From the NCBI GenBank assembly GCA_008632985.1, contig QPGO01000033.1:618175-638174 (forward strand): a DNA stretch of 20,000 nucleotides, in the 5' to 3' direction. Numbering within the stretch: the first letter of the stretch is position 1; each line of letters opens with the position of its first letter. Of the stretch, positions 1 through 20,000 are shown one piece after another. Origin of the DNA: Psammoneis japonica. Taxonomy: Eukaryota. A program made the translations under genes and the position numbers. Under the pieces are notes generated by a model. That model searched no databases, was not told the DNA's origin, and worked only from the letters and a program-made list of their open reading frames with translations.

Positions 1-1420
1 GGCCAGGGAAAGCTCGTGTGCTTCTGTCATGATGGATCAATGTAAACCAAAGTTGTTCTTTTTGTTCTGCAACATCAGAGTGCAGTGCAACAGATTGTCA
101 AGGCGCACCCGCACGTTGGCTGTGCTGTCAGCCAAATCAACACCATTTGCCGTTCACTCACTCGACAAATTACAAAGCTGATGATTCTTGTTGGCTGAAA
201 CTCTTGAGCTGCTTTTGAGACTTGACACAATGACCCACTTGTCCCATCCTTCACCCTCCACATTTCATCAGAGGCCGCAACACAGTGTTGTTCACTTTCC
301 TTTGTAAATTTTGGAACATTGAATTGCACAAAAGTGTGTCATCATTGTCCAACTTCAACAAAAATTTTAAGAGTCAAGTTGAATTTCTCATTTCCTTTTT
401 GTGTGTGCAATTGTTGCCTTTTTGTTTTGACCCAAATTTGCCAAAGACTTTCAATGCACATTTTGTCATCAAAAAATGAGTTTTGTTTTGATGAATTTGT
501 TGCACATTCATGGAAACGTCAACTTTGACAGTGCTTTTCAATGGCTCCACCGCAGTCTTGCGTGGCCCTGACAAAGAGAGAAGGGGCAGGAGGACTTGCC
601 GTGCCTGCCAATGTCAAGACTGCAAAGGACGTGGAGGCAAACATTTGTGTGAGCACCAGATGCATCCACAGTTGGGAAATCAACACTGCACTGCTGTCGT
701 GCCATTCAGCTAGACCAGCAATCACCAGCAAGAGTGACCATAAACTTGCCTTCTGTTGGCACAAAAAGCAAACATGCCCTCATGACAAGTGCACCCATTT
801 CCATCTCTCGCTGCTGTTTTGACTTTCGACCGGCATCCCAAGAGTGACACCATGGCCCGACGGCATCACGCAGCCCCTCGGCATTTCCACAGCCCCCCCC
901 CTTTCCCAAGGTCCATTGATGGCATTGTTGCATTGCAGCCCCTGCTCGCAGCTGTGATTTGTTGTGTGCTCTTCAGCAAAGTTGATTTTGTGTTCCCAAC
1001 ATCTGTCGATGGCGTCACCGTGGCCCAGCTCCTTGCCAACCGTGTGAGAATCAAGCAATGCCAACAGCAGCAAAAACACAGAAGGAGCTTTCACCCATTT
1101 TTGGACTTTCTCACCTCTGTTTTCTTGGACACACAATGTCAGAGTAAAATGTGGAATTGACCTGCATTGGCGTTGTTTGCAAGAGAAGGTTTGACGGCAA
1201 TGATCAAGCATCGGCTGCTTCTGCGCCATCATGGTGGTTTTTTGTGATGATTTTCTGCGCTGCGTTGTCTCACTTGAATGTGGAAAACTGTTTTGCATTC
1301 ATTGTTGCTTTGTTTCTACAAAGTTTGTGTCTTTTTCATGTTTGTTGGAGGCACACTAAAGAATCAGATTTTTTGCATCAAAACGAAGCATGACAACACA
1401 CACTTGGACTTGCAGCACTG

Positions 1421-1486
1421 AACTCTTTCTCCCTTCTTTTCCCTTTTCCTGTCTTCTCCTCTCTCTCTCCTCCCCTCCTCTTTTGT
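1421..1486 (+). repeat. CT-rich low-complexity pyrimidine tract (also at ~18153-18218)
   Basis: ctctttctcccttcttttcccttttcctgtcttctcctctctctctcctcccctcctctttt. Confidence 0.7.
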
Positions 1487-1921
1487 GTTCTGTCAATGAC
1501 ACCAAAAAATTGCCTTGTTTTCACCTGTGCCCACCAGTTTTCCAGTCAGCAGCTCCCTGCCTGCATTTTGGCACATTTTCTGCATGTGCAATGCTCTGCC
1601 CATTTCACAGCAGCGCACCCTCTCCCCAAAATGCATTTGACAAGAGGGTGTGCTGTTGTGTTGTTTGTCAGCAGCAGATCCTGAACCAATTTCATGGTGC
1701 TCACCTTTCGTCGCATGTTGCGAGACATCAGTTTGGAGTGAACTTTCCAATCGACAGATTCGCATGCTGGGTCAGACCATCTGCACTTCTCCTGCACATG
1801 TTGGATCAGAGCTGGGCTGGAAGCTTTGCAACGGAGAACTGATTTAAATTTCAAGCACACCTGAGCCGAAAAATGTCCGGAGAGACAGAAAAGGAACAGC
1901 AGAACCGCGTGCTTCTCCACC

Positions 1922-2673
1922 GTGACATCCAGGCAATGGCAGAATTTGTTCACACGATCATTGCCGGAGACAACCCAAATGATCCCACATCTGGTCAGCC
2001 TTGTTTCTGATTTTTACGTTGCAAAAGTCTCCAAAGTTTGATCAACGATCAAGCCCAAGACCTCCACAGTGCCCATTTTGTCACTGACATTGTCATGCGT
2101 CACGTTCAGTGCAAACCCAAGGACATGGACTGTCGGTTCCTGAAGATTTTCTGTCATGTCAATGCCCAAAAGGAATGGTGCCTCTTTGTCAACAGCTTTC
2201 CGGATGCATGCAATGCTGACGATCCTGGTTCCCAGGTGGATGAGATCAAGGGGTTCCTTGGTGACCCAACCGGCAACATCAAGAACACGGTGATGATGCA
2301 AGGCGATTCCCTTGCACGCCGGGAGGCTCATGAAGAAAAAATCAATTCCATGTTGAATCATGAATTTGAGAACCGTTGTCCCAAGGAGCAAAATGGCATC
2401 TGGCCTGGGCACAGCAAGCAGCTCACAATGCTTTGTTGCAGAATGCACGATCAGAGGGCCGACTGCTTGGAAGATGATGACAAACAACATTGCAAATCTA
2501 AAACCAAACGCAAAATTAAGAGGATCCGCAAAGATGGCACCTGTTTGTGCGATGGCAAGCAACCCGCCCACCTCCCACCTTTTGCCTTTCTGCCTGCATC
2601 TGTCATCTCAATGTCCCTTCTCACACTCCATGGTTGCACACGCCTCACCAGAGCCTTCCTTGACCGTCCCTGA
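1922..2673 (+). pseudogene. Decayed protein-coding-like segment of unknown family (second copy ~18655-19406)
   Basis: The frame reads like a natural globular protein (DIQAMAEFVHTIIAGDNPNDP...KSLQSLINDQAQDLHSAHFVTDIVMRHVQCKPKDMDCRFLKIFCHVNAQKEW...KTKRKIKRIRKDG). It has no Tyr, excess His/Cys and an in-frame TGA at 2008-2010. No family recognised. Confidence 0.35.
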
Positions 2674-3260
2674 CAAGAAGGCCAAGCCTGCATCTCACTC
2701 GAAACCAGCACCTCCTTCATTGTCTGGTGATGTGCCATTGTCTGGGGAGGGAGGAAGCGTTCCAGGCGCAGGTGGGAATCCGTGTGACATTGGGCCCGCA
2801 GAATTCTGCGTGCGAGCTCCGCAGTAAAATCACACGGCAATTAAAATGTGAAGTGCATCGTTTTTTACTCAGCCAGCTACATTCTTCAACCATTGAAGAG
2901 CGCAACTGGTGCATTGTTGTTTCCACAAATTCGTCACACAAAACATCTGGGGCTTCGCAAAACAGTGCTTCTGGACAATTTTTTAAAATGTCACATGTGG
3001 AAATGCATGTGCGAAACATGCGACGGATGACAAAAATCATTTGTGTCACACGTCAGTGCTGCGAGCTCCCACCTGGGGCTGAAACGCGTCGGAGGCGCGC
3101 CGGACTCTCACCGCTGACCTTCCGTCACTCTCAGAAATGATGGAAAACCAAAAACCTGCTCCCACCTCCAAAGGCCCTTTGTCCAAACTGCGTTCCTCTC
3201 CTCCGTCTGTTTCGGGCAAATCTTCCTGCAGTTGCGTCTCCTCCCAGCAACCCTGATGAC

Positions 3261-3725
3261 ATGTCGTGGCTGGACAAGTCCACACTCTGCAATCACTTTG
3301 ACCTGTCCAAGTGTCGGCCCGCCACCACCGAGGAAGTTGCTTCTCATTTGTCACACCTGCACATCATTGACAAAGCCACCAACACTGATCAGTTTCTTCG
3401 TCATTCCGCTGACTTTCACCTGGCAGACAACTTGCGGGAAAACTGGCACACGTTCTCAAACAATGCGCCTTCATGTGATTCCGCCACCGCATCTTGTGTC
3501 CGAACCAAGCACCCTCCTGACCTTGATCACTTCTCCAAGGAACTCTCCATTGCCAGACAAGCCAACTCTCTGTGCAAAGGGCACTTTGGGTGCATTCGTG
3601 TGTGCATTCCTGCCCTCCTTGGAGAGAGTGAGCTGCGGGATGAATTTGCAGCGGGTGCGTTTGATGATGCAAAACTGGTCATGGACAGGGGAGACGTTTC
3701 GACATTGGACACATTCCAGGTCTAG
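3261..3725 (+). pseudogene. Possible decayed coding segment, unknown family
   Basis: 154-aa Tyr-free ORF with protein-like composition (ALLGESELRDEFAAGAFDDAKLVMDRGD). No recognisable motif. Confidence 0.25.
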
Positions 3726-4638: not shown

Positions 4639-4938
4639 TTAAAGCATGTGTGGGGTTTGTTCATTGTGGCAAAAATGACTTTTACAGGCACACGTTTTCA
4701 CAATGTTTTGAGCAAAATGCTTGTGCATGCTGTCAACAGCATGGAAGTGGATTTTGACATTGCAGCAACAGAGAGGTTTGAACTGGAATTTGCATGGATT
4801 CGAAATTTTCAAAAGATGACAAGGAATGGCAAAATTGTTGAATCATGCACACATCAAAAGATTTGGCTAATTCTCGATTGTGCTGCAATTGAGAAAAGAG
4901 AATCATTGATGAAAAGCATCAGATTTTCAGTGTTAAAG
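4639..4938. repeat. ~295-bp AT-rich dispersed repeat, copy 1
   Basis: ttaaagcatgtgtggggtttgttcattgtggc...agattttcagtgttaaag matches 5307-5606. Confidence 0.9.
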
Positions 4939-5064
4939 AGAGGTTTGAAAATTTCCCAATGGTGAAATGAGCTGGGGAACCAAGGCATGGAGCCACCCAC
5001 AATTGGCAACAGTGGCACAGGCTCAACATGAAAAAGAGCACGGTCACTCAGGCGATCAAGAACA

Positions 5065-6166
5065 TTGCAATGGCTGGCAAGTGCACCCATGTTTGCTGAA
5101 GTCGTGTTGACAGACAACAAAGCCAAGGGGATGCGTGGTCAGAAGAAACCGGCAGCGAGAGGCAAAGGAGGGAAGAAGAGCAAGAAGAGGAAGAAGAGCG
5201 ATCAGACAGCAGATGAAGAGCCGTTCCTGGTGACTTGGGAGGAGGAGACAGTGATGACGATTGTGGAGGGCAAGCGCAAGAACAAGGGAGCGCATGCTTG
5301 GTTCTGTTGAAGCATGTGTGGGGTTTGTTCATTGTGGCAAAAATGACTTTTACAGGTGCACGTTTTCACAATGATGTTTTGAGCAAAATGCTTGTGCATG
5401 CTGTTGACAGCATGGAAGTGGATTTTGACATTGCAGCGACAGAGAGGTTTGAGCTGGAATTTGCATGGATTCGAAATTTCCAAAAGATGACAAGAATGGC
5501 AAAATTGACAAAACACACACATTGAAAGATTTGGTTGATTCTCAATTGTGCTGCAATTGAGAAAAGAGAATCATTGATGAAAAGCATCAGATTTTAAGTG
5601 TTGAAGACGATTGTGGAGGACAAGCACAAGAACAAGGAAGTGCATGCTTGGTTCTGCAAAAACGTCCTGAAACTCACGAAGAGCACCACGGGTGAGACGA
5701 AGGCAGCCGGTCTGGCCACAGCAGGTGACGAGGCTCTGGGTCTGTTGATGCTGGAAAACTGCTGGAAGAGTTGGGAGCACAAGGCCCATCATGACAAGAC
5801 TGTTGGAGCTGGGGGGGCTCAGACGAAGAGGATGAGGAAGAGTCGGAACCAACACCCAAGCACATGGACCCGTCGAGGCAACGAGACTCATGGAAGGATG
5901 CAGGGACATTGCGATTCAATGAACTGCTTGCAGAAGTGAAGAAAGACAGGTTGAGTGAGGAGGGCATGCAGTTCGACACATGGTGCAGCGAAGGCAAGAA
6001 AAGGAAGAGTGATGAAAGAGGCAAGGGATCAAAAAGAAAGAAAAAGCCAGTGGGGAAGGAGGCAAGAACACAGGCAACGACAGAGCTTTCAAGTGACAAC
6101 AAGGAGAAGGAGGAAGAGGCAACGGACAAGAACAGAGGAGACAAGGACAGCAAGGAAGAGGATTGA
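5065..6166 (+). pseudogene. Interrupted, frameshifted gene for a charged protein; probably a transposon-associated hypothetical protein
   Basis: ORF pieces 5065-5310, 5598-5939 and 5864-6166 join into ...HAWFCKNVLK...TAGDEALGLLMLENCWKSW...SWKDAGTLRFNELLAEVKKDR..., followed by a Lys/Glu-rich tail. The DEA-x-LL-x-LEN-x-W and W-x3-G-x2-RFNEL-x3-V-x2-DR pattern resembles repeat-associated hypothetical proteins of diatoms (from recall, not searched). Confidence 0.45.
5307..5606. repeat. ~295-bp AT-rich dispersed repeat, copy 2, inserted in a decayed ORF
   Basis: ttgaagcatgtgtggggtttg...agattttaagtgttgaag, flanked by a 55-bp duplication (5252-5306 / 5602-5656). Confidence 0.9.
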
Positions 6167-7023
6167 GAAAGCGATGAGGGAAGCAAGACGAACGCAGATG
6201 CAGATGATGAGCGAGCTGCGGCACGAAAATGCAGTGGAGGCTTTTGTTGGTGTGAGAATGGAAAGCGGGTGAGCAGCACATCAGCGTTCAATGCAAACAG
6301 TTGTGGGGTTCTACGAAGCATTTTGATGGTCATTGTTGCATGATCCAAACTTTCATTTGACAACCAGTGTTCACAATGGAAGGTTCCTCAAACCCATGAA
6401 ATGCAATGATCAGCATTGACTTGTCATCAGACCAAACGTTTTGAATTTCGCATTGAAAAGGTAAAAAGGGACGGCATTCTGACAGTCAAGGGTTGGATCC
6501 CATGGGACAAGGTGGGTTCCCATGGTGAAAAATTGCACACTGTGACATGTGACAAAAAGCCACAGTCCACACAACTGTCAAGGATTGAAGCCTTGACACT
6601 CGTGCCTGTGACGGCAGCAAAAATCACCTGTGAGAAGGGTGGCCAGGATTGCTGCAATTTGCACTCTGACGTTGTTGCGCTGGCTGACAAACAGTGCAAA
6701 TGAGTCACATGTTTCTGGGTCACATGCTGCCTTGCAGCCAAAAGAAGCAATCTTTGCCTTTAGAGCCACCATGATGCACTGGTCTGCCAAATCAAACTCC
6801 GCATCACCATGGACAGTCGGGGAGAAATGTTGTCAAAACTGCGCGATGATGTGTTTGAGCTCTTGAGAGCTCACCCAGCTTGAGACATCATGGCTCCAAG
6901 TTGCCATGTTTGTCGTGAACTCTTCCTGATGCTGTGTCTGTGACTTGGCTTCGTCGTTCAATTGCCGTGGCCATCGCACTTCAGAGGCGACATTCTTGAC
7001 AAGAAAAAGTGTCTCTGGGACAC

Positions 7024-7242
7024 TGACAGGATTTGATCAAGATTGACCAACTCGACCAAATCCGACCCAACGACTTGAAAAATGCGACACCCAGGATTCG
7101 AGCCCAGGCCATCAAGTGACTGGTTGCCAACCAAACCATTCACAGTGCAGCTCAAGTCGAGAGGCTTTTTGCACACAGCAGCTGGATGTGTTTCAGCCAG
7201 AGAGTGACATGCCGGCATTCAACTCTTCTTTGAATTCTGTCA
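7024..7242 (-). repeat. TRIM LTR (3')
   Basis: tgacaggatttgatc...gaattctgtca. Confidence 0.88.
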
Positions 7243-7679
7243 CTCCCCATGTGTCACGAATCTGTCTGATGTGGCTGTCCCTGAATCGCCCCCACAAGGT
7301 TTCTAAGTCACCCAGGATCATTCGGACGGGCAGGTTGAATCGCTCCTCTCACAAAGCTCCGCTGCTGTCAAGGGACCCACCCACATCTTCCGTGCCGGAG
7401 TTGAAGACAGGGCTCAAACATGGACTCTCGCCGCAGTGCATGGCACTCCCTGCAGTGCGCCGATGTCGACTGCATTGCTGACAGATTCCAAGCTCCCTGG
7501 GCAATTTTTCGCGCCCCCCTCATTCAAAGCATGCTGAGCGGCTGCCCTCTGCACACCGGCAACACCCCATTCTGCCCCGACGGCTTCACAGGGGCTTCCC
7601 GACAATGCTGTCCCCCCGAGGCAGGCATGCCCCGTTTTTGAGACAGAGAGATGCGCGCGTCACTCTGAGAATCACGCCA

Positions 7680-7897
7680 TGACAGGATTTGATCAAGATT
7701 GACCAACTCAACCAAATCCGACCCAACGACTTGAAAAATGCGATGCCCAGGATTCGAGCCCAGGCCATCAAGCAGCCGGTTGCCAACTGGACCATTCGCC
7801 GCACAGCTCAAGCTGAGAGGCTTTTGCACACAGCAACTGGATGTGTTTCAGCCAGAGAGTGACATGCCAGCATTCAACTCTTCTTCGAATTCTGTCG
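7680..7897 (-). repeat. TRIM LTR (shared middle)
   Basis: tgacaggatttgatc...gaattctgtcg (terminal CA changed to CG). Confidence 0.88.
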
Positions 7898-8320
7898 CTC
7901 CCCATGTGTCACGAATCTGTCTGATGTGGCTGTCCCTGAATCGCCCCCACAAGGTTTCCATGTCACCCAGGATCATTCGGACGGGCAGGTTGAATCGCTC
8001 CTCTCACAAAGCTCCGCTGCTGTCAAGGGACCCACCCACATCTTCGATGCCGGAGTTGAAGACAGGGCTCAAACATGGACTCTCGCCGCAGTGCATGGCA
8101 CTCCCCACAGCGTGCCGATGTCGACTGCATCGCTGACAGATTCCAAACTCCATGGGCAATTTTTTCATGCCCCCCTCATTCAAAGCATGCTGAGCGGCTG
8201 CCCTCTGCACACTGGCAACACCCCATTCTGCCCCGACGGCTTCACAGGGGCTTCCCGACAATGCTGTCCCCCCGAGGCAGGCATGCCCCGTTTTTGAGAC
8301 AGAGAGACGCACGCGTCACT

Positions 8321-8335
8321 GTGAGAATCGCGCCA
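8321..8335 (-). promoter_or_regulatory. Putative primer-binding site of the TRIM (second copy 7665-7679)
   Basis: Minus strand TGGCGCGATTCTCAC directly after the LTR; TGG is complementary to the tRNA CCA end. The tRNA identity was not determined. Confidence 0.65.
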
Positions 8336-8554
8336 TGACAGGATTTGATCAAGATTGACCAACTCGACCAAATCCGACCCAACGACTTGAAAAATGCGAT
8401 GCCCAGGATTCGAGCCCAGGTCATCAAGCAGCCGGTTGCCAGCTGGGCCATTCGCCGCGTGGCTCAAGTCGAGAGGCTTTTTGCACACAGCAGCTGGATG
8501 TGTTTCAGCCAGAGAGTGACATGCCGGCATCCAACTCTTCTTCGAATTCTGTCA
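8336..8554 (-). repeat. TRIM LTR (5')
   Basis: tgacaggatttgatc...gaattctgtca. Confidence 0.88.
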
Positions 8555-9497
8555 GACACCTCGCGACAACGGAGACCCTGCAGAACAAAAGAGCAGCACA
8601 GAAAGAGAAATCGCGCGTGAGCCAAACGGTCACAAGCACGCAAAGCCCCGACAAAACACACAGCATGAATGGCAACGCACAAGGTTGGTCGTGATGCAAC
8701 AGAAGTGACGTTGTCAATGCGAGCCTTCAGCAAGAATTTTCACCATGATCCACCCACATGAACCTGGGTGTTCTCGACCTTGTCTCGCAGAAGATGACGC
8801 AATGTGCCAAACTCCGTTGAGAGCATCCAGGTTCCGACCTCAGAGATGATCGCATTTTTTGGCTTGGCAAAACACCATTGTTCGTGCTGTTTTGCGTGTC
8901 ATTTTGAGCCATGAGCCAGAAAACACTCCCAAAAACTGTTCTGCAGGGTGAAGTGCACTGAGTCTGCACAGATTTGGGCTGTTCCAGGCTGCGCAGAAAG
9001 TGAGCGGGCCAAAAACTCTGGTGCACCCACTCAAACACATTCGACAACTGACTGACAACAGATCGGTTGACTGGCTTCCCAAAGCGCCACTTGTGTTGTG
9101 CCCTTCCCCAGCTGCTCTCCGGCTGGTGCCATGGAGTGCAGTCGTTCAATTTAGATTGTGCCTGCAACATCATTTGCAACAAACGTGACTGCCACTTTTC
9201 ACACATTGTCTGCCAAACAGGTGTTGGCTCCAGCTCATGTGTCTCAGTGCAACCCACCACGTGGCTTTCCTCATCCCCCAACCCATTGCCCCCCTCCTCC
9301 ACTTTCCTGTCATGCTCTGCCACAATCTTCCTGCAAAAATCCTCCCTCTTGCGTTTCCTGGGTGCGCTCCCTTCCGCGTCTCCGTTCTTGGAGTTCCCTG
9401 CCATGAAAAGCTTCAGGCGTCTCACGCACTTTCTCCTCTTTGCCCCGCGCTCTTCATCGGGCAGGTTCTTGTTGTTCTGCAGCTCTGTGGTGACCAG

Positions 9498-9962
9498 CAA
9501 AATGGCCAAGGGCACAAAATCAAAAAGGACAAAAAATGTCTTTTGAGGGCGCCAAATCACAAAGGGCACAAACCAGGCAGGGGCACAAAATTGCTGTCAC
9601 AAAATGGCTGAGGGCGCAAAATGGTGGCTGAGGGCACAAAGCTGCCAAGGGCAAAAAATCAGAAAGGGTCCAAAATGGCAAAAGGCACAAAACCACAATG
9701 GCCAAAAATTGCTGAAGGCACAAAATCATGAGGGGCACCAAATGCGGCTGAGGGCCCAAAACCAAAAAAGGCACAAAATGGCAAAGGGCACAAAGTCACA
9801 AAGGGCGCAAAATGGCCAAGGGCACAAAACCACGAGACAGGGCAAAGTGCTCAAGGGCACAAAAAAAGGAAAGGGCACAAAGCAGCCAAGGGCACAAAAA
9901 GGTCAAGGGCACAAATCAAGAATTGCGCAACATGGCTGAGGGCACAAAATCTCAAAGGTGCC
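9498..9962. repeat. Degenerate minisatellite built on the motif AGGGCACAAAA (units ~20 bp)
   Basis: About 20 recurrences of ggcacaaa/ggcgcaaa interleaved with aaatggccaa/aaatggctga. Confidence 0.85.
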
Positions 9963-10308
9963 ATGCCAAATGCGAAAATGCAAAATGCGAAAATGCAAAA
10001 AAAATGCGAAATGCGAAAATGCAAAAATGCGAAAATGCTGAAACAAAATGCGGAAACGCGGAAATGCGAAAATGCGGAAACGCGGAAATGTGAAAATGCG
10101 GAAATGCAAAAATGCGGAAATGCGAAAATGCGGAAATGCGGAAGTGCGGAAATGCGGAAATGCGAAAATGCCCAAACGCGGAAATGCGGAAATGCGAAAA
10201 TGCAGAAATGTGGAAATGTGGAAATGCAAAAATGCAAAGAAATGCAGAAATGCAGGAATGCAGAAAAACACGAAAACACAGAAATGTGGAAATGCAAAAA
10301 TGCAAAAA
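9963..10308. repeat. 8-bp satellite (GAAATGCG / AAAATGCG)n
   Basis: About 40 degenerate units, e.g. gaaatgcg gaaatgcg aaaatgcg, with variants gaaacgcg, gaaatgtg, aaaatgca, gaaaacac. Confidence 0.93.
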
Positions 10309-10336
10309 GGGTCAGGCTTGGGTTTGGGGTTGGGGC
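10309..10336 (+). repeat. Degenerate telomere-like hexamer tract
   Basis: ggg tcaggc ttgggt ttgggg ttgggg. Each hexamer has CA or TG where TTAGGG has TA; two also differ at the last base. Confidence 0.45.
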
Positions 10337-10349
10337 TTGTTTCTGAATC

Positions 10350-10908
10350 TTTGGCACATGACATCTTGTCTGTCAACATGACAATGTTTTTTGTGTGTTG
10401 GTTTCACGACAAGGTGTTGTGTCCAGCAAATGTCCATCAAAGTGCTGTGGCGGTGTTTCAAGCTCAAGACAAAATTGGTTGGAGACAGATTTTCAATGGG
10501 CGCTTCTCATCTTTGTGGAACAAAGCTCAGCCATCATGCTTGCTGTCAACTGGATTGTGCCGCTCCTTGTTGAACATGGAAAAGCACCCAGATTGGGCCA
10601 CTGCGATTGGCCGTTTTGTGTGGCCCCAATGGCGGGAACACTCCATGATGACACTGCACATGGGCACAATTTGGGCACAAGAAAGTCCTCACAGCACCGT
10701 GACGCCAAGGCAGAAGCATGAGCCATCCATTCCAAGGCAGACAATTGTTCAGCTTGCAATCGATCCAAGTTGCTCAGTTCAGTGGAGGAGCACCTCACTT
10801 GTTTGACCCACAGACTGTGCAGCTGGTTGGCCATGGCTCGACCAATGTTCAAGTCAAGCATCCGCGAAGCCTGGCGTCTGGCAGTGAGGGGCACTGGCGC
10901 CATTGCAA
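10350..10908 (+). mobile_element. 5'-truncated, decayed non-LTR retrotransposon (C-terminal region); continues at 16403-16471
   Basis: AQDKIGWRQIFNGRFSSLW...W...IGRFVWPQW / DTAHG...SVEEHL...SWL...PMFKSSIREAWRLAVRGTGAIA resembles the Q-x2-IGW-x2-F-x-GR-x-S-x2-W C-terminal region of diatom LINE-like proteins (from recall). The frame resumes in phase after the Copia. Confidence 0.6.
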
Positions 10909-11084
10909 TGAGCAATTCACGCCGCAGTCTCTGGGAATTTGACAAGATGCGACAGAAAATGTTGGCGCGGCAATCAACAGGTTCCAGAAAATTGCAAGGT
11001 TGTTCTGTGCCACCCTCTGTGTCAGCGACAGTGATGGTCTTCGCCAAATGCCATGTTCAGCGACAGTGTGGCTGCACTCACTCA
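10909..11084 (-). repeat. Copia 3' LTR
   Basis: TGAG...CTCA inverted termini; aligns without gaps to 16227-16402. Confidence 0.92.
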
Positions 11085-11094
11085 GTCCCCTCGA
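11085..11094 (-). promoter_or_regulatory. Polypurine tract of the Copia
   Basis: Minus strand TCGAGGGGAC directly before the LTR start TGAG. Confidence 0.65.
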
Positions 11095-11303
11095 ATGGAC
11101 ACCAGCTTTGGCAGGATCAATTCGACCCTGTGCATCCACGTTGCCGGCCCTTTCCAGGCCAGTTCAAAAAAAACATGTCTCGGGATGGGCAAAACCATCT
11201 CCATTTTGGAAATGGAAAATCCCGGTTCGTCTGCAAGACGAAGCAATCAGTGGCGCCACAGCTGCATTGGGCTCGGGTGTTTTGCCCGCCACTGGAATCA
11301 CAA

Positions 11304-11621
11304 TCACCACAAAATGTGATGAGTTGACTCCCGGAGCCTCGGTCCGGGCATCAACTTGGTGAGAACGTCAGCGAGATTCTTCTCGCCATCCTCCCAAGCA
11401 ATGCGCACAATGCCAGCAGCCTGCGCCTCATGCATCCGGTGACAAGCAATGGCACTGTGCTTCTTTTTGAGTGTCGACTCGGGCCGCATTGAGTTCTCAA
11501 ACACGGCCTCATTGTCACAGAAGACGTTGATGGAGCCATCGATGGGAGCACCCATCATGCGAAGCTTGTGTCGAAAGGCCTCGATCTGCTCCACGGCAAT
11601 TTTCATCGCAACAAATTCCAC
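11304..11621 (-). pseudogene. Copia RNase H, C-terminal part
   Basis: EFVAMKIAVEQIEAFRHKLRMMGAPIDG..VFCDNEAV..N...PESTLKKKHSAIACHR..EA.AAG.......GEKNLADVLTK. Confidence 0.93.
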
Positions 11622-12981
11622 ATTCCTGAAAACGTGATTGATTGAAGGTCAGTTCCGTGTCATCGAACACCATCGCTGACCTGGCATGTGCCTTCAAACA
11701 GGCAAAGATGTGAAACACCTCATCCAGGTGCCCAACCCTTGGCACTGCCAAGCAAGAAGACAGAAGAGAGACTGGCGCTGCAATGTCAGTGCGCCCCAGT
11801 TCCACCACCCAACACAAAACGCCAATGAGTCCCTGGAAACAAGTCGCCCTTCGGGCATCCAGCTCAGGTGCAGCGTCAAGTTCAGGGTGATGCCCCAAAC
11901 TCAATGGCGTTGCGACTCTCTTCTTGAGTCCCCGGCCTGCACGGCCGAGTTCAAACTCAATGTTGGCAGCGGCCCACTGGACACACAAGTCAGGTGCAAG
12001 GGCCCAACGTGTTTTGCCGTCCGAGTCAGATGGTTGGAACTTCTTCACTTCGGCACCCAGGTGCTCTTCCGGTTCCTTGACGCTTCCCTCTTTTGGCACA
12101 TGTCTCAAAGCCATGTAATCCATGAACTTCTGGGGTTCATGCGAGACAACCAGCAGGTCATCTGCATGTGCAAGCATGCATTCCCAGCACTTGAAGCCAT
12201 CCAGCTTGGCATTCTTGTGCATCCACACATCGGGATCACCCTTGCCACAGGTGAATCCCACGAGCCTTGGCGTTGCTGCCACATGTTCCCTAAAAGCAGC
12301 GCCGGAACTCTTCAGTCCGCACAGGGCCCTGACAATTTCAACGGGTCGACCGACACTCTGCTTGCCAAAGTCCAGGCCAGCAATTGTGCAACAGCACTCC
12401 TTCATTGGTGCATTCAGACGAGCATTCTGAATGTTGGCACACATGACTTCCAAGTCATTCAGAGCTGCTGTCGTGTGGCCTCCAGCCACGTGTTGCACTT
12501 TCCTGTTCAAGTCCAACTTGATGTCAAACACCAAGTGGCACTTAATTTCCTTGTGTCCCATCTGGTCATCATCGACAAATTCGAAGGCTGGCATTGCATT
12601 GCGCATCTCCTTCTCAATTGCATTTCCCCGCAGGTCAAGCCCAGACTGTTCGTCCAGCATCAAGGCCTGCTCCACGGATTTTGGCAATTCGACACCGAAT
12701 TTGTGAGTGCGCTTCCAGCACCTGGTCTTGACTTTCATGACCATCCTGGCATGACGACGCAACATGTCTCGAACCCACCAGTTGAACGCTGGCTCACCAG
12801 CCATCTCATTTGCAACAGCATGCTCCGTGACTTGGACAGGGAATGATTCTTTTGCCTCCGACAAAGGGAGCCAACTAGAGCTTCCATCTTTCCACTCAAA
12901 CTGTGTGTCCCAGTCAATTGTCGTTCGGCGGGGCCTGCGCGTGCCACTCTTTGTGACAAAGAAACCATCATCTTTGTGCAC
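11622..12981 (-). pseudogene. Copia reverse transcriptase (RVT_2 type) and upstream linker
   Basis: WKDGSSSWLPL..KES.PVQV.EHAVAN..EPAFNWWV, KFGVELPKSVEQAL, CHLVFDIKLD, VAGGH, RALCGLKSSGAAFR, DPDVW, HADDLL (normally YVDD), GRTDI. Confidence 0.95.
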
Positions 12982-13790
12982 TGCGCATGCGTCACTTTGG
13001 TGACCTGCAATCTCTTTGACAATTTGGCAAGATCGTCCCTCCCCACAAACCTGGGAGCAGATGTTCTCAGCAAATTAAATTGGCTGTGAACGTGTCGGCA
13101 GATCTGTCTGGGAACTCTACCTCGCAAAGCCGTGAATCCAGGACAGGCTTTTTGTGCCGCTTCCCTGTCTGATTTCCATCCGCACCGCGCTGCATTGGCA
13201 TCTTCCTTGCCAAATGGGTCTTCGGGTGGTTCTGGGAACTTGTCATTCCCTTCCTGACCATCCCCTGGCCTGAGTTTCAGACTGGCATCGAGATGCTCAA
13301 TCTTTTGCCAAATCGCATTGGTCTTCAAGTCATCCTCAGGCAGAGCCCACACATCCTTCCAAATGATGGGTGTGCCTGATTCAGGTGGGATCACAAATGC
13401 CATGTCATCTGCACAGTTTTCTGTGACACCTGACCAGCGCCCGATGCACTTCCTTTCAAAGGGAAATTTTGCCTGAGGCATCATAAAGTGCACCGGCTGG
13501 CACCAGTCAAAGAGGGCATGAGCTGAGACGTCTGGTGTTGAACCCGTGATGTCCTCTTTGGGGACTTTCCCATCCATTTCCGGATGCTCAGAGGCCGCGA
13601 GCCTCCTGACAGCCATGGCCCACTTGGCACAGCAGGACCAGCAGCGTTTTGGCGCATTCGTGCGCCTTGTTGCAATCCGCACTTTCTTCTTCAGCTCACG
13701 AATGGAGGCTTCGGCCAAGTTCTGCCGCAGACTGCAAGGAACAGCAACCCCTTGTTTGATCCGGCACCCCAATGATTCGTAATGGGATCC
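12982..13790 (-). pseudogene. Copia integrase C-terminal remnant
   Basis: PCSLRQNLAEASIRELKK (cf. EPYSPWQNxAExxIRELK), TGSTPDVSAHALFDWCQPVHF, IGRWSGV; frameshifted. Confidence 0.85.
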
Positions 13791-13849
13791 GGACCTTGGA
13801 GTCTGGGAAGGCAATTGAATGAGTGCTGGAGCTGCCAAACTGCTTTGGC

Positions 13850-14140
13850 ACATCATGCACCGTCAAGCCGTTAGCATGGAGCTGATTGGGACATGTCAGT
13901 GAGTGTTCATCCTGTCCCCAATGTGCATGGCCTCACTCAAGATGAGGAGGTGTGGCTGACCAGAACTCGGGTCAACCCAGACAGCAGCAACCATCTGCAT
14001 CGGGATGTTGTTGATCGGGTCGCATTCACTGGAATGTGGATGTGCAGTGACAGCACGAGAGGGGTCAGAGAAGGGAACACAGCTGGATCCTGCAATGCAT
14101 GTGTCGGCATGCATGTCCAGCTTGTTGAAAAGGGAGTTGT
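13850..14140 (-). pseudogene. Copia aspartic protease region
   Basis: LDMHADTCIAGSSC (cf. the CoDi-type ELDSHADTCxxG), followed by DPSSGQPHLLILSEAMHIGDRM. Confidence 0.85.
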
Positions 14141-14300
14141 GGCCTGCATCAGTGTCGACTGAAGCTGTGCATCTCAAGGATTTAGCGAAAGGCACAGACA
14201 CATTTCCATTGGTGCAGACAGAAGCAGCATCACAAGAATTGATTTTAGACTCCATTTTAACTTCTACAAGGTTGTTGTCCTTGCTCATTGGCGCAACCTT

Positions 14301-15590
14301 TCATTCCTTTTTCTTGGCTTCCGCAATGCTTGCAGCCGCAGGCTTGTGCGCTCTGCGCCCAAACTGATTCCCAGCATCGGCACCCCCTTTTTCCTTTGAG
14401 GTTTTCTCCTTTTCAACGTCCTTGGGATCAGCAACCGTCACCTTGGAATGTTTCCTCAGAGGTTCTTCGGTTGCCTTTGTTTTCAGAGCAGCAGCTCGGC
14501 GCTTCTTCTCATGCCTCTTCTTCTCCCGAAGCTCATTGACTTTGGCCTTCTCCTCTTGGTTGAGGTCATCCCATTCTTCCTTGGGACAATGGCCTGCCCT
14601 GATCCGGGGCTTGTCTTTCACCTTGCCTTTTCCCTGGCCTTGGTTCCTGTTCCTGGCGTTGTCCCGTTCCAATGCCGCAATCTGGCGGTGATCCGTTGCC
14701 CGATTCTTTGAGTTCTCAACCAGTGTCTTCATGTGCTGTTGACACAACTCAAAGCTGGAGAGTTTTGCCTTGTCGCTGTCTGCGACGCTCTTTCTGGTCT
14801 CCAACCTTGGGTCCGTGATTCCCTTCAGGAAATCTGAGACCTTCTTGGTCTCTGCCACCAGCTCATGCTGGTTGAATGCATGACGACCGCGCCCAGCGCA
14901 TTTTGCGGCAGTGATCTGAGCATGCATGCGGCTCTTGAGTGGTTTGATCAAGGCCCACCCTGGCCCATCAATGATCAGCTTTTTCAAGAGATCACAAACC
15001 TGCTTGCTGTCAGTGTCATGCAAATTCCCTTGATGGATCGTGGCAGCGTCAAGGTCCTTGTCGACGTTCGAATGAGTGGCATTGCGCACCTCATTGTTGA
15101 CTTCCGAAGTCTCGCGAACAATGCACAAAAGTGGAACGCCCGCAACTGCATTACGGCGGTGCTGGAGCTTGGTCCCAAACAGCTCATCCCAATTGTAAAA
15201 ATCGTGCATCTGACTCAGAGGTGCAGTGCTTGGGGAGTTGTCGTCTGATTTGTCCTTCTGGATGTTCGACAATTCACTCAGACACTCTGTTCAGCAAGTG
15301 ATTGCAGCGTCGTTGAAAGCTTGGGCCTGCCTTGGCTGTCCACGTGTCGTTTGACAATCCAGAAAAGCTCAAAATGCCTTGAACTTCCTGATCAAAAGGT
15401 GTGGGAACTGCACAGCTGGGTTGTCAACAGTGTCCTTGATGAATCCCTTGACCATGTCTCCGACCTCAGACAGTGGGATTTGGTGGCAGGAATCAGCATC
15501 GGTGATCCCTTGCACCACAACATGGGCCCTGGTGGCATCGTCAAACCCAGTCCGGGTGAGGGCTGCATCAAAAGCGACAGCGGCAGCCAT
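14301..15590 (-). pseudogene. Copia gag, frameshifted
   Basis: MAAAVAFDAALTRTGF...QGI...FPHLLIRKFKAF, GVPLLCIVR, DSKQVCDLLKKLIIDGPGW, ETKKVSDFLKGITDPRL, CPKEEWDDLNQEEK. Lies between the 5' LTR and the protease. Confidence 0.8.
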
Positions 15591-15658
15591 TGTGCAGTCA
15601 AAACAACCCCGTCAGAGGCACGACATGCGTGTGTGCGTGTTTCGTTTCGATTTTCTCA

Positions 15659-16155
15659 CGCCAACGGCAAAAGTTGGCTCTGCCAATGACATTGAAACCG
15701 GCAAATTAATGGAGTGTCAATTTCCTCAACAACTCCACACTCAACATGTCCCAGTGCACATCAGCATTGCGCACACATTGAATTGTTTCCAATGATTAAT
15801 TTCCGTTGTGCACTGCTCAGGTCCAACGAGTGAACTGTGTTCACATTCACAACTGTGTCACATTTGCAGCGAACAATTTCGATTGAAGTGAGGTCATGGT
15901 GTGTCTTTCCATTGTGCATTTGGCGCGCGATCGCCAATGGCAAAAGTTGGCTCAACCAATGACATTGAGACCGGCAAATCAACGGAGTGTCAATTTCCTC
16001 AACAATTCCATGCTCAACACATCCCAGTGCACATCTGCATTGCGCGCACATTAAATCATTTCCAACGATTGATTTCCGTTGCACATTGCTCAGGTCCAAC
16101 AAGCGAGTTGTGCTCACATTCACAACTGTGTCACATTTGCAGTGAACAATTTCGA
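15659..16155. repeat. Tandem duplication (224 bp x2, period 273) in the Copia 5' leader
   Basis: 15659-15882 matches 15932-16155 (cgccaa(c/t)ggcaaaagttggctc...gaacaatttcga). Confidence 0.92.
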
Positions 16156-16212
16156 AAGAATGGCCGCCATGCCATTGCCCATTCCAGGCTGCAGAACAAA
16201 GAGAGACGTCAT

Positions 16213-16223
16213 TGGCTCTGACA
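16213..16223 (-). promoter_or_regulatory. Putative tRNA-iMet-like primer-binding site
   Basis: Minus strand TGTCAGAGCCA, 3 nt after the 5' LTR, matches the canonical (TGG)TATCAGAGCCA except TA>TG. The TGG itself is not conserved. Confidence 0.55.
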
Positions 16224-16226
16224 AAG

Positions 16227-16402
16227 TGAGCAATTCACGCCACAGTCTCCAGGAATTTGACAAGATGTGATGGAAAATGTTGGCACAGCAATCAACAGGT
16301 TCTAGAAAATTGTGAGGTCATTCCATGCCACCCTCTGTGTCAGCAACAGTGATGGTCTTTGCCAAACACCACACTCAGCAACAGCATGACTGCACTCACT
16401 GA
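16227..16402 (-). repeat. Copia 5' LTR
   Basis: Aligns without gaps to 10909-11084; the terminal ctca is ctga here. Confidence 0.92.
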
Positions 16403-16471
16403 GCAAAATGTTTTGGCACAACATCGTCTCAGGGTGATGCCAACCAAGGACGTGCAAAACCAACAAGTTGA
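16403..16471 (+). mobile_element. Remainder of the interrupted non-LTR element ORF
   Basis: Removing 10909-16402 and one copy of GCAA gives att gca aaa tgt ttt ggc... = IAKCFGTTSSQGDANQGRAKPTS*, with the stop at 16469-16471. Confidence 0.55.
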
Positions 16472-16727: not shown

Positions 16728-19700
16728 GGCCAGGGAAAGCTCGTGTGCTTCTGTCATGATGGATCAATGTAAACCAAAGTTGTTCTTTTTGTTCTGCAAC
16801 ATCAGAGTGCAGTGCAACAGATTGTCAAGGCGCACCCGCACGTTGGCTGTGCTGTCAGCCAAATCAACACCATTTGCCGTTCACTCACTCGACAAATTAC
16901 AAAGCTGATGATTCTTGTTGGCTGAAACTCTTGAGCTGCTTTTGAGACTTGACACAATGACCCACTTGTCCCGCCCTTCACCCTCCACATTTCATCAGAG
17001 GCTGCAACACAGTGTTGTTCACTTTCCTTTGTAAATTTTGGAACATTGAATTGCACAAAAGTGTGTCATCATTGTCCAACTTCAACAAAAATTTTAAGAG
17101 TCAAGTTGAATTTCTCATTTCCTTTTTGTGTGTGCAATTGTTGCCTTTTTGTTTTGACCCAAATTTGCCAAAGACTTTCAATGCACATTTTGTCATCAAA
17201 AAATGAGTTTTGTTTTGATGAATTTGTTGCACATTCATGGAAACGTCAACTTTGACAGTGCTTTTCAATGGCTCCACCGCAGTCTTGCGTGGCCCTGACA
17301 AAGAGAGAAGGGGCAGGAGGACTTGCCGTGCCTGCCAATGTCAAGACTGCAAAGGACGTGGAGGCAAACATTTGTGTGAGCACCAGATGCATCCACAGTT
17401 GGGAAATCAACACTGCACTGCTGTCGTGCCATTCAGCTAGACCAGCAATCACCAGCAAGAGCGACCACAAACTTGCCTTCTGTTGGCACAAAAAGCAAAC
17501 ATGCCCTCATGACAAGTGCACCCATTTCCATCTCTTGCTGCTGTTTTGACTTTCGACCGGCATCCCAAGAGTGACACCGCGGCCTGACGGCATCACGCAG
17601 CCCCTCGGCATTTCCACAGCCCCCCCCCCCCCCTTTCCCAAGGTCCATTGACGGCATTGTTGCATTGCAGCCCCTGCTTGCAGCTGCAATTTGTTGTGTG
17701 CTCTTCAGCAAAGTCGATTTTGTGTTCCCAACATCTGTCGATGGCGTCACCATGGCCCAGCTCCTTGCCAACCGTGTGAGAATCAAGCAATGCCAACAGC
17801 AGCAAAAACACAGAAGGAGCTTTCACCCATTTTTGGACTTTCTCACCTCTGTTTTCTTGGACACACAATGTCAGAGTAAAATGTGGAATTGACCTGCATT
17901 GGCGTTGTTTGCAAGAGAAGGTTTGACGGCAATGATCAAGCATCGGCTGCTTCTGCGCCATCATGGTGGTTTTTTGTGATGATTTTCTGCGCTGCGTTGT
18001 CTCACTTGAATGTGGAAAACTGTTTTGCATTCATTGTTGCTTTGTTTCTACAAAGTTTGTGTCTTTTTCATGTTTGTTGGAGGCACGCTAAAGAATCAGA
18101 TTTTTTGCATCAAAACGAAGCATGACAACACACACTTGGACTTGCAGCGCTGAACTCTTTCTCCCTTCTTTTCCCTTTTCCTCTCTTCTCCTCTCTCTCT
18201 CCTCCCCTCCTCTTTTGTGTTCTGTCAACGACACCAAAAAATTACCTTGTTTTCACCTGCACCCACCAGTTTTCCAGTCAGCAGCTCCCTGCCTGCATTT
18301 TGGCACATTTTCTGCATGTGCAATGCTCTGCCCATTTCACAGCAGCGCACCCTCTCCCCAAAATGCATTTGACAAGAGGGTGTGCTGTTGTGTTGTTTGT
18401 CAGCAGCAGATCCTGAACCAATTTCATGGTGCTCACCCTTTCGTCGCATGTTGCGAGACATCAGTTTGGAGCGAACTTTCCAATCGACAGATTCGCACGC
18501 TGGGTCAGACCATCTGCACTTCTCCTGCACATGTTGGATCAGAGCTGGGCTGGAAGCTTTGCAACGGAGAACTGACTTAAATTTCAAGTTCACCGAAGCC
18601 GAAAAATGTCCGGAGAGACAGAAAAGGAACAGCAGAACCGCGTGCTTCTCCACCGTGACATCCAGGCAATGGCAGAATTTGTTCACACGATCATTGCCGG
18701 AGACAACCCAAATGATCCCGCATCTGGTCAGCCTTGTTTCTGATTTTTGCGTTGCAAAAGTCTCCAAAGTTTGATCAACGATCAAGCCCAAGACCTCCAC
18801 AGTGCCCATTTTGTCGCTGACATCGTCATGCGTCACGTTCAGTGCAAACCCAAGGACATGGACTGTCGGTTCCTGAAGATTTTCTGTCATGTCAATGCCC
18901 AAAAGGAATGGCGCCTCTTTGTCAACAGCTTTCCGGATGCGTGCAATGCTGACGATCCTGGTTCCCAGGTGGATGAGATCAAGGGGTTCCTTGGTGACCC
19001 AACCGGCAACATCAAGAACACAGTGATGATGCAAGGCGATTCCCTTGCACGCCGGGAGGCTCATGAAGAAAAAATCAATTCCATGTTGAATCATGAATTT
19101 GAGAACCGTTGTCCCAAGGAGCAAAATGGCATCTGGCCTGGGCACAGCAAGCAGCTCACAATGCTTTGTTGCAGAATGCGCGATCAGAGGGCCGACTGCT
19201 TGGAAGATGATGACAAACAACATTGCAAATCTAAAACCAAACGCAAAATTGAGAGGATCCGCAAAGATGGCACCTGTTTGTGCGATGTCAAGCAACCTGC
19301 CCACCTCCCACCTTTTGCCTTTCTGCCTGCATCTGTCATCTCAATGTCCCTTCTCACACTCCACGGTTGCACACGCCTCACAAGAGCCTTCCTTGACCGT
19401 CCCTGACAAGAAGGCCAAGCCTGCATCTCGCTCGGAACCAGCACCTCCTTCATTGTCTGGTGATGTGCCATTGTCTGGGGAGGAAGCGTTCCAGGCGCAG
19501 GTGGGAATCCGTGTGACATTGGGCCCGCAGAATTCTGCGTGCGAGCTCCGCAGTAAAATCACACGGCAACTAAAATGTGAAGTGCATCGTTTTTTACTCA
19601 GCCAGCTACACTCTTCAACCATTGAAGAGCGCAACTGGCGCATTGTTGTTTCCACAAATTCGTCACACAAAACATCTGGGGCTTCGCAAAACAGTGCTTC

Positions 19701-20000
19701 TGGACAATTTTTTAAAATGTCACACGTGGAAATGCACGTGCGAAACATGCGACGGATGACAAAAATCATTTGTGTCACACGTCAGTGCTGCGAGCTCCCA
19801 CCTGGGGCTGAAACGCGTCGGAGGCGCGCCGGACTCTCACCGCTGACCTTCCGTCACTCTCAGAAATGATGGAAAACCAAAAACCTGCTCCCACCTCCAA
19901 AGGCCCTTTGTCCAAACTGCGCTCCTCTCCTCCGTCTGTTTCGGCAAATCTTCCTGCAGTTGCGTCTCCTCCCAGCAACCCTGATGACATGTCGTGCTGG
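16728..20000. repeat. Copy 2 of the large direct repeat (runs off the window)
   Basis: Near-identical to 1-3273. Confidence 0.97.

Follow-up and report, generated by a model that had tools for sequence, protein, structure and literature searches.

DNA-level A-to-G hypermutation at TpA is described in only one report that we found in the literature, a 2026 preprint on integrated viruses. In mutation-accumulation lines of Bigelowiella natans, that preprint found that 230 of the 231 mutations gained within integrated viral regions were A→G/T→C changes, all at TpA, and it proposed a defence role involving adenine deamination (Mettrop et al. 2026 preprint, bioRxiv 10.64898/2026.01.13.699255). Compared with that case, the locus presented here is near-saturated over at least 20 kb, with a rho for TA of 0.06 against 0.45 in their NCLDV region, and concerns an LTR retrotransposon and satellites rather than a virus. 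TpA loss is here combined with strong CpG decay, and the terms 'CpG', 'LTR' and 'Copia' have 0 occurrences in the preprint.

Other known systems resemble the window, by which we mean the whole 20-kb stretch of DNA that was analysed, in part. Fungal RIP is likewise a dinucleotide-specific transition hypermutation at the DNA level; its targets are repeated or mobile sequences, which it destroys once they are integrated, and it makes LTR dating unreliable. RIP turns CpA/TpG into TpA and so enriches TA, whereas the window shows the opposite direction, with TA depleted 16-fold and CA/TG enriched, and RIP was rejected for it on these grounds. In transposable elements, the decay of methylated CG converts it to TG or CA on either strand, which is the swap pattern described below, and both the window's observed/expected CG of 0.58 and the dominance of CG-versus-TG/CA differences in its young duplicates resemble it; neither the loss of TA nor the change of Tyr codons to His or Cys codons can, however, result from such decay. 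ADAR hyper-editing of repeat-derived double-stranded RNA shares the A-to-G change with a 5' U/T neighbour but acts on RNA, whereas here both strands of integrated DNA and non-retroelement repeats are affected. The best named relatives of the element are diatom reverse transcriptases from Fragilaria crotonensis and Fistulifera solaris, which carry PF07727 and are 47-49% identical; they belong to what we take to be diatom Copia-like elements of the CoDi type, from which the window copy differs in being degenerate, Tyr-free and without an RVT_2 match.

Structure and insertion of the Copia element

The locus is best explained as a degenerate Ty1/Copia-type LTR retrotransposon on the minus strand that was inserted once in a higher-copy repeat. 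In element orientation, the 3' LTR (10909..11084, minus strand) and the 5' LTR (16227..16402, minus strand) are each 176 bp long and were delimited as direct repeat D4 (85% identity), by alignment and by composition. The 3' LTR adjoins a putative polypurine tract read from the sequence, GAGGGGA on the minus strand (11086..11092), whose role is suggested by its position. Three bases inside the 5' LTR lies a weak primer-binding-site-like stretch (16214..16223, minus strand, TGTCAGAGCC), a partial fit to the familiar motif: the plant-type initiator-tRNA core presumably has TA where this stretch shows TG, and there is no fit at the three bases expected to pair with the CCA end of the tRNA. An internal tandem duplication in the 2.1-kb leader (15659..16171, repeat D3; 15659-15898 and 15932-16171, 86-88% identical) carries 27 mismatches, comprising 4 swaps, 7 CG-versus differences, 3 TA-versus differences, 7 other transitions and 2 transversions.

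The two LTRs are parts of a single insertion. The same four bases, GCAA, lie directly outside them (10905..10908 on the left, 16403..16406 on the right), and four contigs of public run X1 join the left flank (up to 10908) to the right flank without the element, an unfilled site at which 26 of 30 letters match by eye. The sequence-only reading had placed the LTR differences after insertion and on DNA, and this placement is upheld by the duplication and the unfilled-site contigs. That the LTRs stem from separate insertions, brought together for instance when two elements recombined, with divergence predating the locus, is most improbable, and the test for separate insertions that this reading had proposed came out against them. 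The fifth base of the duplication has no match in register, where Copia target-site duplications are usually 5 bp, and the base following GCAA differs in the unfilled-site contigs, both of which would accord with a composite origin; against it stand the GCAA on both sides, the flank-joining contigs and LTRs that differ at only 2 of 82 sites outside hypermutable dinucleotides.

The polyprotein remains (11307..14132, minus strand), mapped by tblastn with 40 homologues of at least 900 aa each, are broken by frameshifts and, compared with the best full-length relative, have two internal deletions. Residues 21-149, 440-631, 682-1230 and 1306-1356 of homologue P0001 align to the element, and its residues ~150-440 and 1230-1306 have no counterpart there; residues 440-631 align upstream of the reverse transcriptase part, P0001's own rve match being weak (E 0.12). 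The longest open frame, assigned from its homologues to the reverse transcriptase/RNase H region (519 aa, 11515..13074, minus strand), is nearly free of Tyr (Y 0.2%, H 4.4%, C 4.6%). It has 7800 homologues at E<=0.001, the best 51-54% identical (best E 2.7e-147 in one search and 4.3e-173 in another), and PF07727 RVT_2 is present in all 120 among the matches listed; no intact copy more than 54% identical to the frame was found among the protein homologues. Compared with Pfam at E<=1, the frame itself matched no family, PF07727 included, except for a chance CHZ line; P0001 matches PF07727 at E 3.7e-19.

Differences between the two LTRs

An ungapped LTR alignment (10909-11085 against 16227-16403, 177 columns) contains 27 mismatches and 0 gaps, with 26 transitions and 1 transversion, and the hand count of the sequence-only reading (about 27 differences, no gaps, one transversion) was exact. 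The transversion, a C/G difference in the third-last column, is the reason that one LTR ends in TG...GA and the other in TG...CA on the plus strand; another copy in run X1 has C at this position. Eight of the differences are TG<->CA swaps of adjacent bases (LTR offsets 23, 44, 86, 92, 97, 140, 145 and 158), all in sequence contexts that had been quoted from the start. Seven further sites are CG in one LTR and CA or TG in the other, with CG in the copy at 10909 in 7 of 7; at one site TA (16302-16303) stands opposite CA, again in agreement with the initial counts of one and about seven, and two transitions fall outside these classes.

The differences are thus confined almost entirely to a few dinucleotides, 24 of the 27 positions falling within CG, TA, TG or CA. 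When 26 transitions were placed at random on the LTR in 20,000 trials, swaps averaged 0.81 and reached a maximum of 5, so that the observed 8 are about 10 times the chance expectation. Outside CG/TA/TG/CA the LTRs differ at 2 of 82 sites (2.4%), against a raw 27 of 177 (15.3%). LTR dating of this Copia is consequently inflated ~7-fold, an overestimate that had been anticipated from the sequence alone. The 3' LTR contains 0 TA where 10.5 are expected, 8 CG (expected 11.5) and 39 TG+CA (expected 22), and its TG+CA surplus is mainly lost TA; the 5' LTR contains 1 CG, 1 TA and 45 TG+CA.

TA loss at tyrosine codons and across the window

Tyrosine columns were defined by at least 70% Tyr among at least 8 intact homologues, which gave 16 columns. 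None of these 16 conserved codons still encodes Tyr: 7 are now TGY, 5 CAY, 2 TGG, 1 CGT and 1 TTC, while other conserved residues are largely kept (Gly 30/33, Pro 20/21, Phe 10/10, His 8/8, Trp 9/10). A second alignment, with 16 occupied Tyr columns, reads C at 9, H at 5, R at 1 and F at 1. The changes at TpA are A→G/T→C and yield TpG and CpA, as in the 12 of 16 Tyr codons that became TGY or CAY. Since both products occur on the coding strand, the conversion of TA affected both strands of the DNA, and editing of the genomic RNA is ruled out.

TA depletion extends over all 20 kb, with observed/expected values of 0.06 for TA, 1.57 for CA and 1.61 for TG. The window retains 77 TA, 0-9 per kb, with 0 in 10001-12000, and its non-retroelement flanks of satellite and tandem-repeat DNA are as TA-free as the Copia. 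These flanks include a satellite (9498..10308, by self-comparison) that is built of 8-bp units (GAAAATGC-like) and lies immediately upstream of the insertion, and a TA-free tandem repeat of ~656 bp, 94% identical in self-BLAST (7024..8553), in which 6 swaps, 20 CG-versus and 1 TA-versus differences were counted. Self-BLAST further identified a segmental duplication (1..3273, partner 16728-20000, period 16,727 bp) whose copies are 98.1% identical and serve as a young calibration pair. Depth summed over X1 contigs amounts to several hundred to several thousand in the window and suggests that the whole stretch is repeated. The same TA-poor family is carried by X1 contigs, of which 213 of 1082 aligned are at least 99% alike. 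The window may itself derive from run X1, which is therefore not independent of it.

TA or CG ancestry of the swaps

The LTRs alone cannot tell whether a given swap site was ancestrally TA or CG; by composition, we estimate that about 5-6 of the 8 swaps arose from TA and 2-3 from CG. The earlier suggestion that swaps in themselves imply ancestral TA did not hold, as CpG decay gives the same pattern and accounts for most changes in the youngest pair. Of the 50 mismatches in the 3.3-kb duplicate, 29 are CG-versus-TG/CA, 4 are TA-versus, 2 swaps account for 4 positions, and 8 other transitions and 5 transversions were counted. CpG decay is active and very fast here: 29 of ~119 CG sites differ in this duplicate, against 6 of 1707 background sites (0.35%).

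It is therefore conceivable, though in our assessment unlikely, that CpG decay alone produced the LTR pattern, with all 8 swaps arising from methylated CG deaminated on opposite strands in the two LTRs and TA lost earlier, in the donor copy or an already depleted lineage, and so identically in both LTRs. CG-versus-TG/CA is the largest class in each of five repeat pairs, 65 differences altogether, and among 40 fixed differences listed in X1 copies CG stands opposite window TG/CA in 12 and TA in only 3. The LTR counts fit a model of independent loss (24 ancestral CG, losses of 0.67 and 0.96), with four site classes expected at 0.3/7.7/0.7/15.3 and observed at 1/7/0/16, and swap sites and CG sites were not distinguished by their flank context (9/19 versus 16/55, p=0.17). 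The retained TA, initially read as evidence for a TA origin, loses that standing: background transitions predict 0.9 such LTR sites for the 1 seen, and ordinary transitions at TG/CA predict 10.9 TA-versus sites for the 12 found in the five pairs. A check of other LTR copies had also been proposed, and a third copy, in which three of the eight swap sites are covered, reads TG at each of them; neither TA nor CG, and hence no unmutated state, was seen at them.

The same account would nevertheless need ~24 CG per 176-bp LTR, an observed/expected of ~1.5 or more with ancestral TG/CA at ~0.6, where the element interior implies CG below 1. It would also need a mobilised source copy that lacked Tyr codons and had a damaged primer site. 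The five pairs hold 24 swaps against 5.7 expected under independent CpG decay (Poisson tail 1e-8), and although rate differences among CpG sites could contribute to this excess, swaps also exceed expectation in CG-poor pairs, with 4 against 0.45 in the pair 4639/5307.

Discussion

We favour, as the probable history of this locus, mutation of the inserted DNA by two dinucleotide-specific processes, TpA conversion and CpG decay, both ending in TG/CA; the sequence-only reading had raised such a convergence as a caveat, and it is the reading that best fits the data. Through replacement of A by G on one strand or the other of the palindrome, TpA would have been converted to TpG or CpA almost to saturation. 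The cause is most likely adenine deamination by a putative enzyme, which by analogy with the proposal for B. natans may act in defence against repeats and foreign DNA. The second process would be ordinary decay of putatively methylated CpG, much stronger in the 5' than in the 3' LTR. Each LTR would have resolved each ancestral TA or CG independently, so that about half of the doubly converted sites appear as TG/CA swaps.

The repeats also bear on the order of events. Because the 98% duplicate copies share the TA-free state (631 shared TG/CA and 15 shared TA, with 2 swaps), the TA wave is older than the duplication, and the same counts hint indirectly that the TA process was inactive afterwards. 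The Copia insertion is older still than the duplication, as judged from background divergence (2/82 versus 6/1707). We infer both when the TA wave occurred relative to the insertion and how the eight swaps divide.

An artefact of sequencing or assembly, in which base modification at TA causes it to be read as TG or CA, with a random outcome in each copy, is very unlikely. Strand-dependent miscalling at a palindromic site would give random TG/CA, and X1, as a possible source of the window, is no independent check. However, the X1 contigs carry the TA-poor family too, and their changes run both ways (A>G 129, G>A 106, C>T 141, T>C 132), TA is restored in only 3 of the 40 fixed differences listed, the element also has deletions and frameshifts, and assemblies from Logan, ENA and JGI/IMG contain six further Copia proteins that are free of Tyr or poor in it. 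The B. natans result came from Illumina mutation-accumulation lines (bioRxiv 10.64898/2026.01.13.699255).

Least credible of all is that ADAR-like A-to-I editing of the transcript, or errors of reverse transcriptase, became fixed through retrotransposition: the preference for a 5' T is similar to that of ADAR for its neighbouring base (bioRxiv 10.64898/2026.01.13.699255), yet only sense-strand A→G would be heritable and CAY stands beside TGY, with further coding-strand changes of Val to GCA (2) and Leu to CCA (1), LTRs identical at integration differ at the swap sites, and the surrounding satellite and tandem-repeat DNA is equally TA-free, so that the original argument against RNA editing gains support independent of the LTRs.

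On the two-process history, the window shows the saturated end state of TpA hypermutation in a retrotransposon, with LTR pairs and nested duplications as internal clocks for timing the process and Tyr codons as sites of known ancestral state. CpG decay converges on the same products, so that any claim about one process or the other requires copies whose ancestral states are known. LTR-divergence dating in such genomes is off by ~7-fold, and mutated genes are missed entirely by profile searches such as Pfam. More tentatively, and as a possibility that we hold short of even confidence, these observations may reflect a TpA-directed DNA mutator that changes A to G on either strand and acts after integration on retrotransposons and neighbouring satellites, in a host whose diatom-like Copia elements place it beyond the one chlorarachniophyte reported; its episode would fall after the Copia insertion (2.4%) and before the 16.7-kb duplication (0.35%), and would have reduced TA to 6% of expectation. 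If this is true, the same defence would be at work elsewhere in nature, with the Tyr-free Copia proteins of unrelated public assemblies as its mark.

Results

TA is nearly absent from the window, occurring 77 times in 20 kb (obs/exp 0.06; range 0-9 per kb), with CA and TG at obs/exp values of 1.57 and 1.61 and CG at 0.58. This depletion is common to an 8-bp satellite, a 656-bp tandem repeat, both flanks and the Copia element. The surviving TAs lie mostly in TAA/TTA contexts (TTAA 22, GTAA 14 and TTAC 9 of the 77). Counting both strands, TA contains 154 adenines, of which 85 precede an A and 3 a T, with TAT/ATA almost absent; the base after TG, in contrast, is evenly distributed over all four. 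The bias among survivors may stem from the neighbour preference of the process, or else from the route by which new TAs arise. The near absence of TAA and TAG leaves long open frames in all six frames, and those of at least 100 aa number 68. Positions 1-3273 and 16728-20000 are directly duplicated over 3.3 kb or more (period 16,727 bp, 98.1% identity), and the window is therefore longer than a single unit of some large repeat, tandem or segmental. The satellite (9498-10308), built of GAAAATGC-like units, lies upstream of the insertion site and stops about 600 bp short of it, and its CG, TG and CA unit variants look like CpG decay inside the array.

The element is coded on the minus strand and is invisible to family profiles. 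No Pfam family matched the window significantly in any frame, reading all six frames through their stops (coded as X) across the element and across 1-10903 returned no family at E<=0.01, ten long frames gave just one sub-threshold line (DUF5726), and the 519-aa frame at 11515-13074 (minus strand) had no Pfam reverse transcriptase match even at E<=1. By contrast, a protein search with the same frame gave 7800 hits at E<=0.001, with 51-54% identity for the best of them; these relatives bear RVT_2, the Ty1/Copia reverse transcriptase, and those with names are diatom proteins (Fragilaria crotonensis, Fistulifera solaris). Relative to P0001, the best full-length relative, the element lacks residues ~150-440 and ~1230-1306 and contains several frame changes. 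A purine run adjoins the 3' LTR (10909-11084). Part of the 2.1 kb that separates the 5' LTR (16227-16402) from where the polyprotein match begins is taken up by a 329-aa Lys/Glu/Arg-rich open frame (14301-15290, minus strand), which has no significant family (DUF5726, sub-threshold, E 0.004) and may be a gag-like remnant. Three bases inside the 5' LTR, a stretch at 16214-16223 (minus strand) bears a weak, partial resemblance to an initiator-tRNA primer-binding motif, and its bases that should face the CCA end of the tRNA are mismatched. Where this stretch has TG, the motif has TA; were it a true primer-binding site, it would provide a known ancestral TA that mutated after integration.

Several observations indicate that the two LTRs belong to one insertion rather than to separate ones. 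Each LTR is immediately flanked on its outer side by GCAA. In X1, the single public sequencing run found to contain window DNA (49% of sampled words), four contigs follow the left flank to 10908 and then continue with right-flank letters past 16406, 26 of 30 matching by eye; as read from their sequence, these contigs come from further copies of the host repeat in which the site is unfilled. Two other runs, X2 and X3, yielded no contigs aligning to the window. The summed depth of X1 contigs is ~2900-4350 in the flanks and 240-2170 in the element (mostly 240-940), and the Copia is therefore inserted within a more abundant repeat.

The LTR pair (direct repeat 10909-11085 / 16227-16403; 177 columns, 85% identity) aligns without gaps and shows 27 mismatches, comprising 26 transitions and one transversion. 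The differences described in the sequence-only reading, including every sequence context it quoted, are present in this alignment. Eight are adjacent TG<->CA swaps (LTR offsets 23, 44, 86, 92, 97, 140, 145 and 158), seven sites have CG in one copy and CA or TG in the other, one has TA in the 16227 copy opposite CA, and two are other transitions. When 26 transitions were scattered randomly over the LTR in 20,000 trials, swaps averaged 0.81 and never exceeded 5, and the eight observed are therefore real structure rather than chance. Each swap marks an ancestral dinucleotide that, once the element had integrated, was resolved one way in one LTR and the other way in its partner, which is as true of CG as of TA. 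All seven one-sided CGs are retained by the 3' LTR and none by the 5' LTR (CG totals 8 versus 1), a split suggesting that CpG decay, and presumably methylation too, was much heavier at the 5' LTR. The kilobases around the LTRs follow the same trend: CG obs/exp is 0.69-0.78 to one side and falls to 0.49 across the element.

Tyrosine codons report on TA loss independently of the LTRs. Forty homologues of at least 900 aa were aligned to the element, giving 265 codon columns covered by at least 8 homologues with at least 70% agreement. At the 16 conserved Tyr columns the element has no Tyr, carrying instead TGY (Cys) at 7, CAY (His) at 5, TGG at 2, and CGT and TTC at 1 each, while other residues are retained (Gly 30/33, Pro 20/21, Asp 21/24, Phe 10/10, His 8/8, Trp 9/10). 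Further TA->CA changes occur at Val (to GCA, 2) and Leu (to CCA, 1), and when 14 intact relatives were aligned separately, the 16 occupied Tyr columns held Cys 9 times, His 5 times, and Arg and Phe once each. The presence of both TA->TG and TA->CA on the sense strand indicates that TA was lost on both DNA strands. Had the genomic RNA been edited, or reverse transcriptase made the errors, change would run in one direction only and the LTRs would be identical; the Tyr changes in both directions contradict this. The earlier proposals that mutation occurred on DNA and after insertion thus hold, the former on codon evidence and the latter because a single insertion's LTRs diverged at ancestral dinucleotides. 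The single CGT among the 16 conserved Tyr codons is the product expected when both adenines of one TA convert, and some CpGs in 11307-14132 (minus strand) could be products of the TA process rather than ancestral. Such double conversion is too rare, at 1 of 16 codons, to be the source of the seven CGs of the 3' LTR.

CpG decay is equally real. In the 98.1% duplicate, 50 mismatches comprise 2 swaps, 29 CG versus TG/CA, 4 TA versus TG/CA, 8 other transitions and 5 transversions, with 631 TG/CA common to both copies. CG loss between these duplicates is uneven, 22 from the first copy and 7 from the second. The older pairs show 6 swaps, 20 CG-versus and 1 TA-versus sites (656-bp tandem, 94%), 4, 2 and 3 (4639 / 5307, 92%) and 4, 7 and 3 (leader duplication, 88%). 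Among the 40 listed places at which every aligned X1 contig differs from the window, X1 has CG opposite window TG/CA at 12, TA opposite CA at 3, TG/CA opposite CG at 4, CA opposite TA at 1, and other changes at 20. A third LTR copy, visible at the 40 listed of 592 variable places in the X1 comparison, covers three of the eight swap sites and has TG at all three. Searches for other LTR copies with two degenerate LTR patterns in metagenome contigs, and with one pattern in genome and in viral contigs, gave no matches, as did a protein-based locus search of viral contigs.

The sequence-only reading had connected the swaps and one retained TA with ancestral TA, while allowing that a swap alone could also come from CG decay. 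The retained TA carries no weight, as one-copy TAs number 12 across five repeat pairs against 10.9 predicted from background transitions on TG/CA. Nor do the LTR swaps by themselves identify ancestral TA, since CG decay produces swaps too. A model in which all LTR swaps come from CG decay also fits: 24 ancestral CGs with losses of 0.67 and 0.96 give expected classes of 0.3/7.7/0.7/15.3 against the observed 1/7/0/16. For this model to work, the ancestral LTR must have had a CpG obs/exp of at least ~1.5 and a TG/CA value of ~0.6.

Swap excess, mass balance and timing indirectly favour a large TA share. The pairs together hold 24 swaps against 5.7 from independent CpG decay, and in the older pairs the counts are 6 against 1.6, 4 against 0.45, 4 against 1.4 and 8 against 1.25, an excess that rate differences among CpG sites could inflate. 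The 3' LTR has 8 CG (11.5 expected), 0 TA (10.5 expected) and 39 TG+CA (22 expected), and this TG/CA surplus is mostly lost TA; the element interior is short of 276 TA and 134 CG and has 371 TG/CA in excess. Flanking context did not separate swap sites from true CG sites: 9/19 versus 16/55 have 5'-A or 3'-T next to them (p=0.17), although within the LTR alone the post hoc figures are 5/7 versus 0/6. We estimate by inference that 5-6 of the eight LTR swaps came from TA and 2-3 from CG. Both processes are at work in the window, in line with the earlier alternative that TA and CG converge on TG/CA.

The TA-free state common to both 98% duplicates indicates that the TA wave was over before that duplication. 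Background divergence is 2/82 in the LTRs and 6/1707 in the duplicate, so that the Copia insertion is older than the duplication and may have been exposed to the TA wave. LTR divergence is 15.3% raw (K2P 0.181) but 2.4% (K2P 0.025) at the 82 columns outside CG/TA/TG/CA, an age inflation of ~7-fold that bears out the earlier warning on dating.

Discussion

The original interpretation of the LTRs is supported in part. It stands in placing mutation after insertion and on DNA, with RNA editing excluded; the swaps, however, do not separate TA loss from CpG decay. A full-text literature search for TpA hypermutation of DNA returned one relevant precedent, from Bigelowiella natans mutation-accumulation lines (Mettrop et al., bioRxiv 10.64898/2026.01.13.699255). 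In those lines, 231 of 302 nuclear mutations fell in two integrated viral regions, and 230 of these 231 were A->G or T->C, all at TpA and in some lines only. The genome holds 124 clusters of TpA-poor, CpA+TpG-rich windows enriched in reverse-transcriptase domains, and an ADAT2-like adenine deaminase is the proposed cause; the terms LTR, Copia and CpG are absent from the preprint's text. On this account the signature is the same as that of our window, which is at saturation, but the B. natans regions are integrated viruses whereas ours is a retrotransposon with diatom-type named relatives.

Other Copia proteins share the pattern. Mean Tyr content among the 270 examined is 3.9%, and six reverse-transcriptase fragments from Logan, ENA and JGI/IMG assemblies (P0055, P0082, P0097, P0112, P0143 and P0150) have Tyr of 0-0.9% with His and Cys raised. 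At conserved Tyr columns they carry His and Cys, both directions of change, and they are 39-46% identical to the window's frame. To judge from these substitutions, they bear the same signature in other Copia families.

For a process of this kind one recent preprint is the precedent, and the window adds a new, saturated instance of it in a retrotransposon. Genes hypermutated at TA escape annotation by profiles: Pfam detects no reverse transcriptase here, and phmmer recovers relatives by the thousand.
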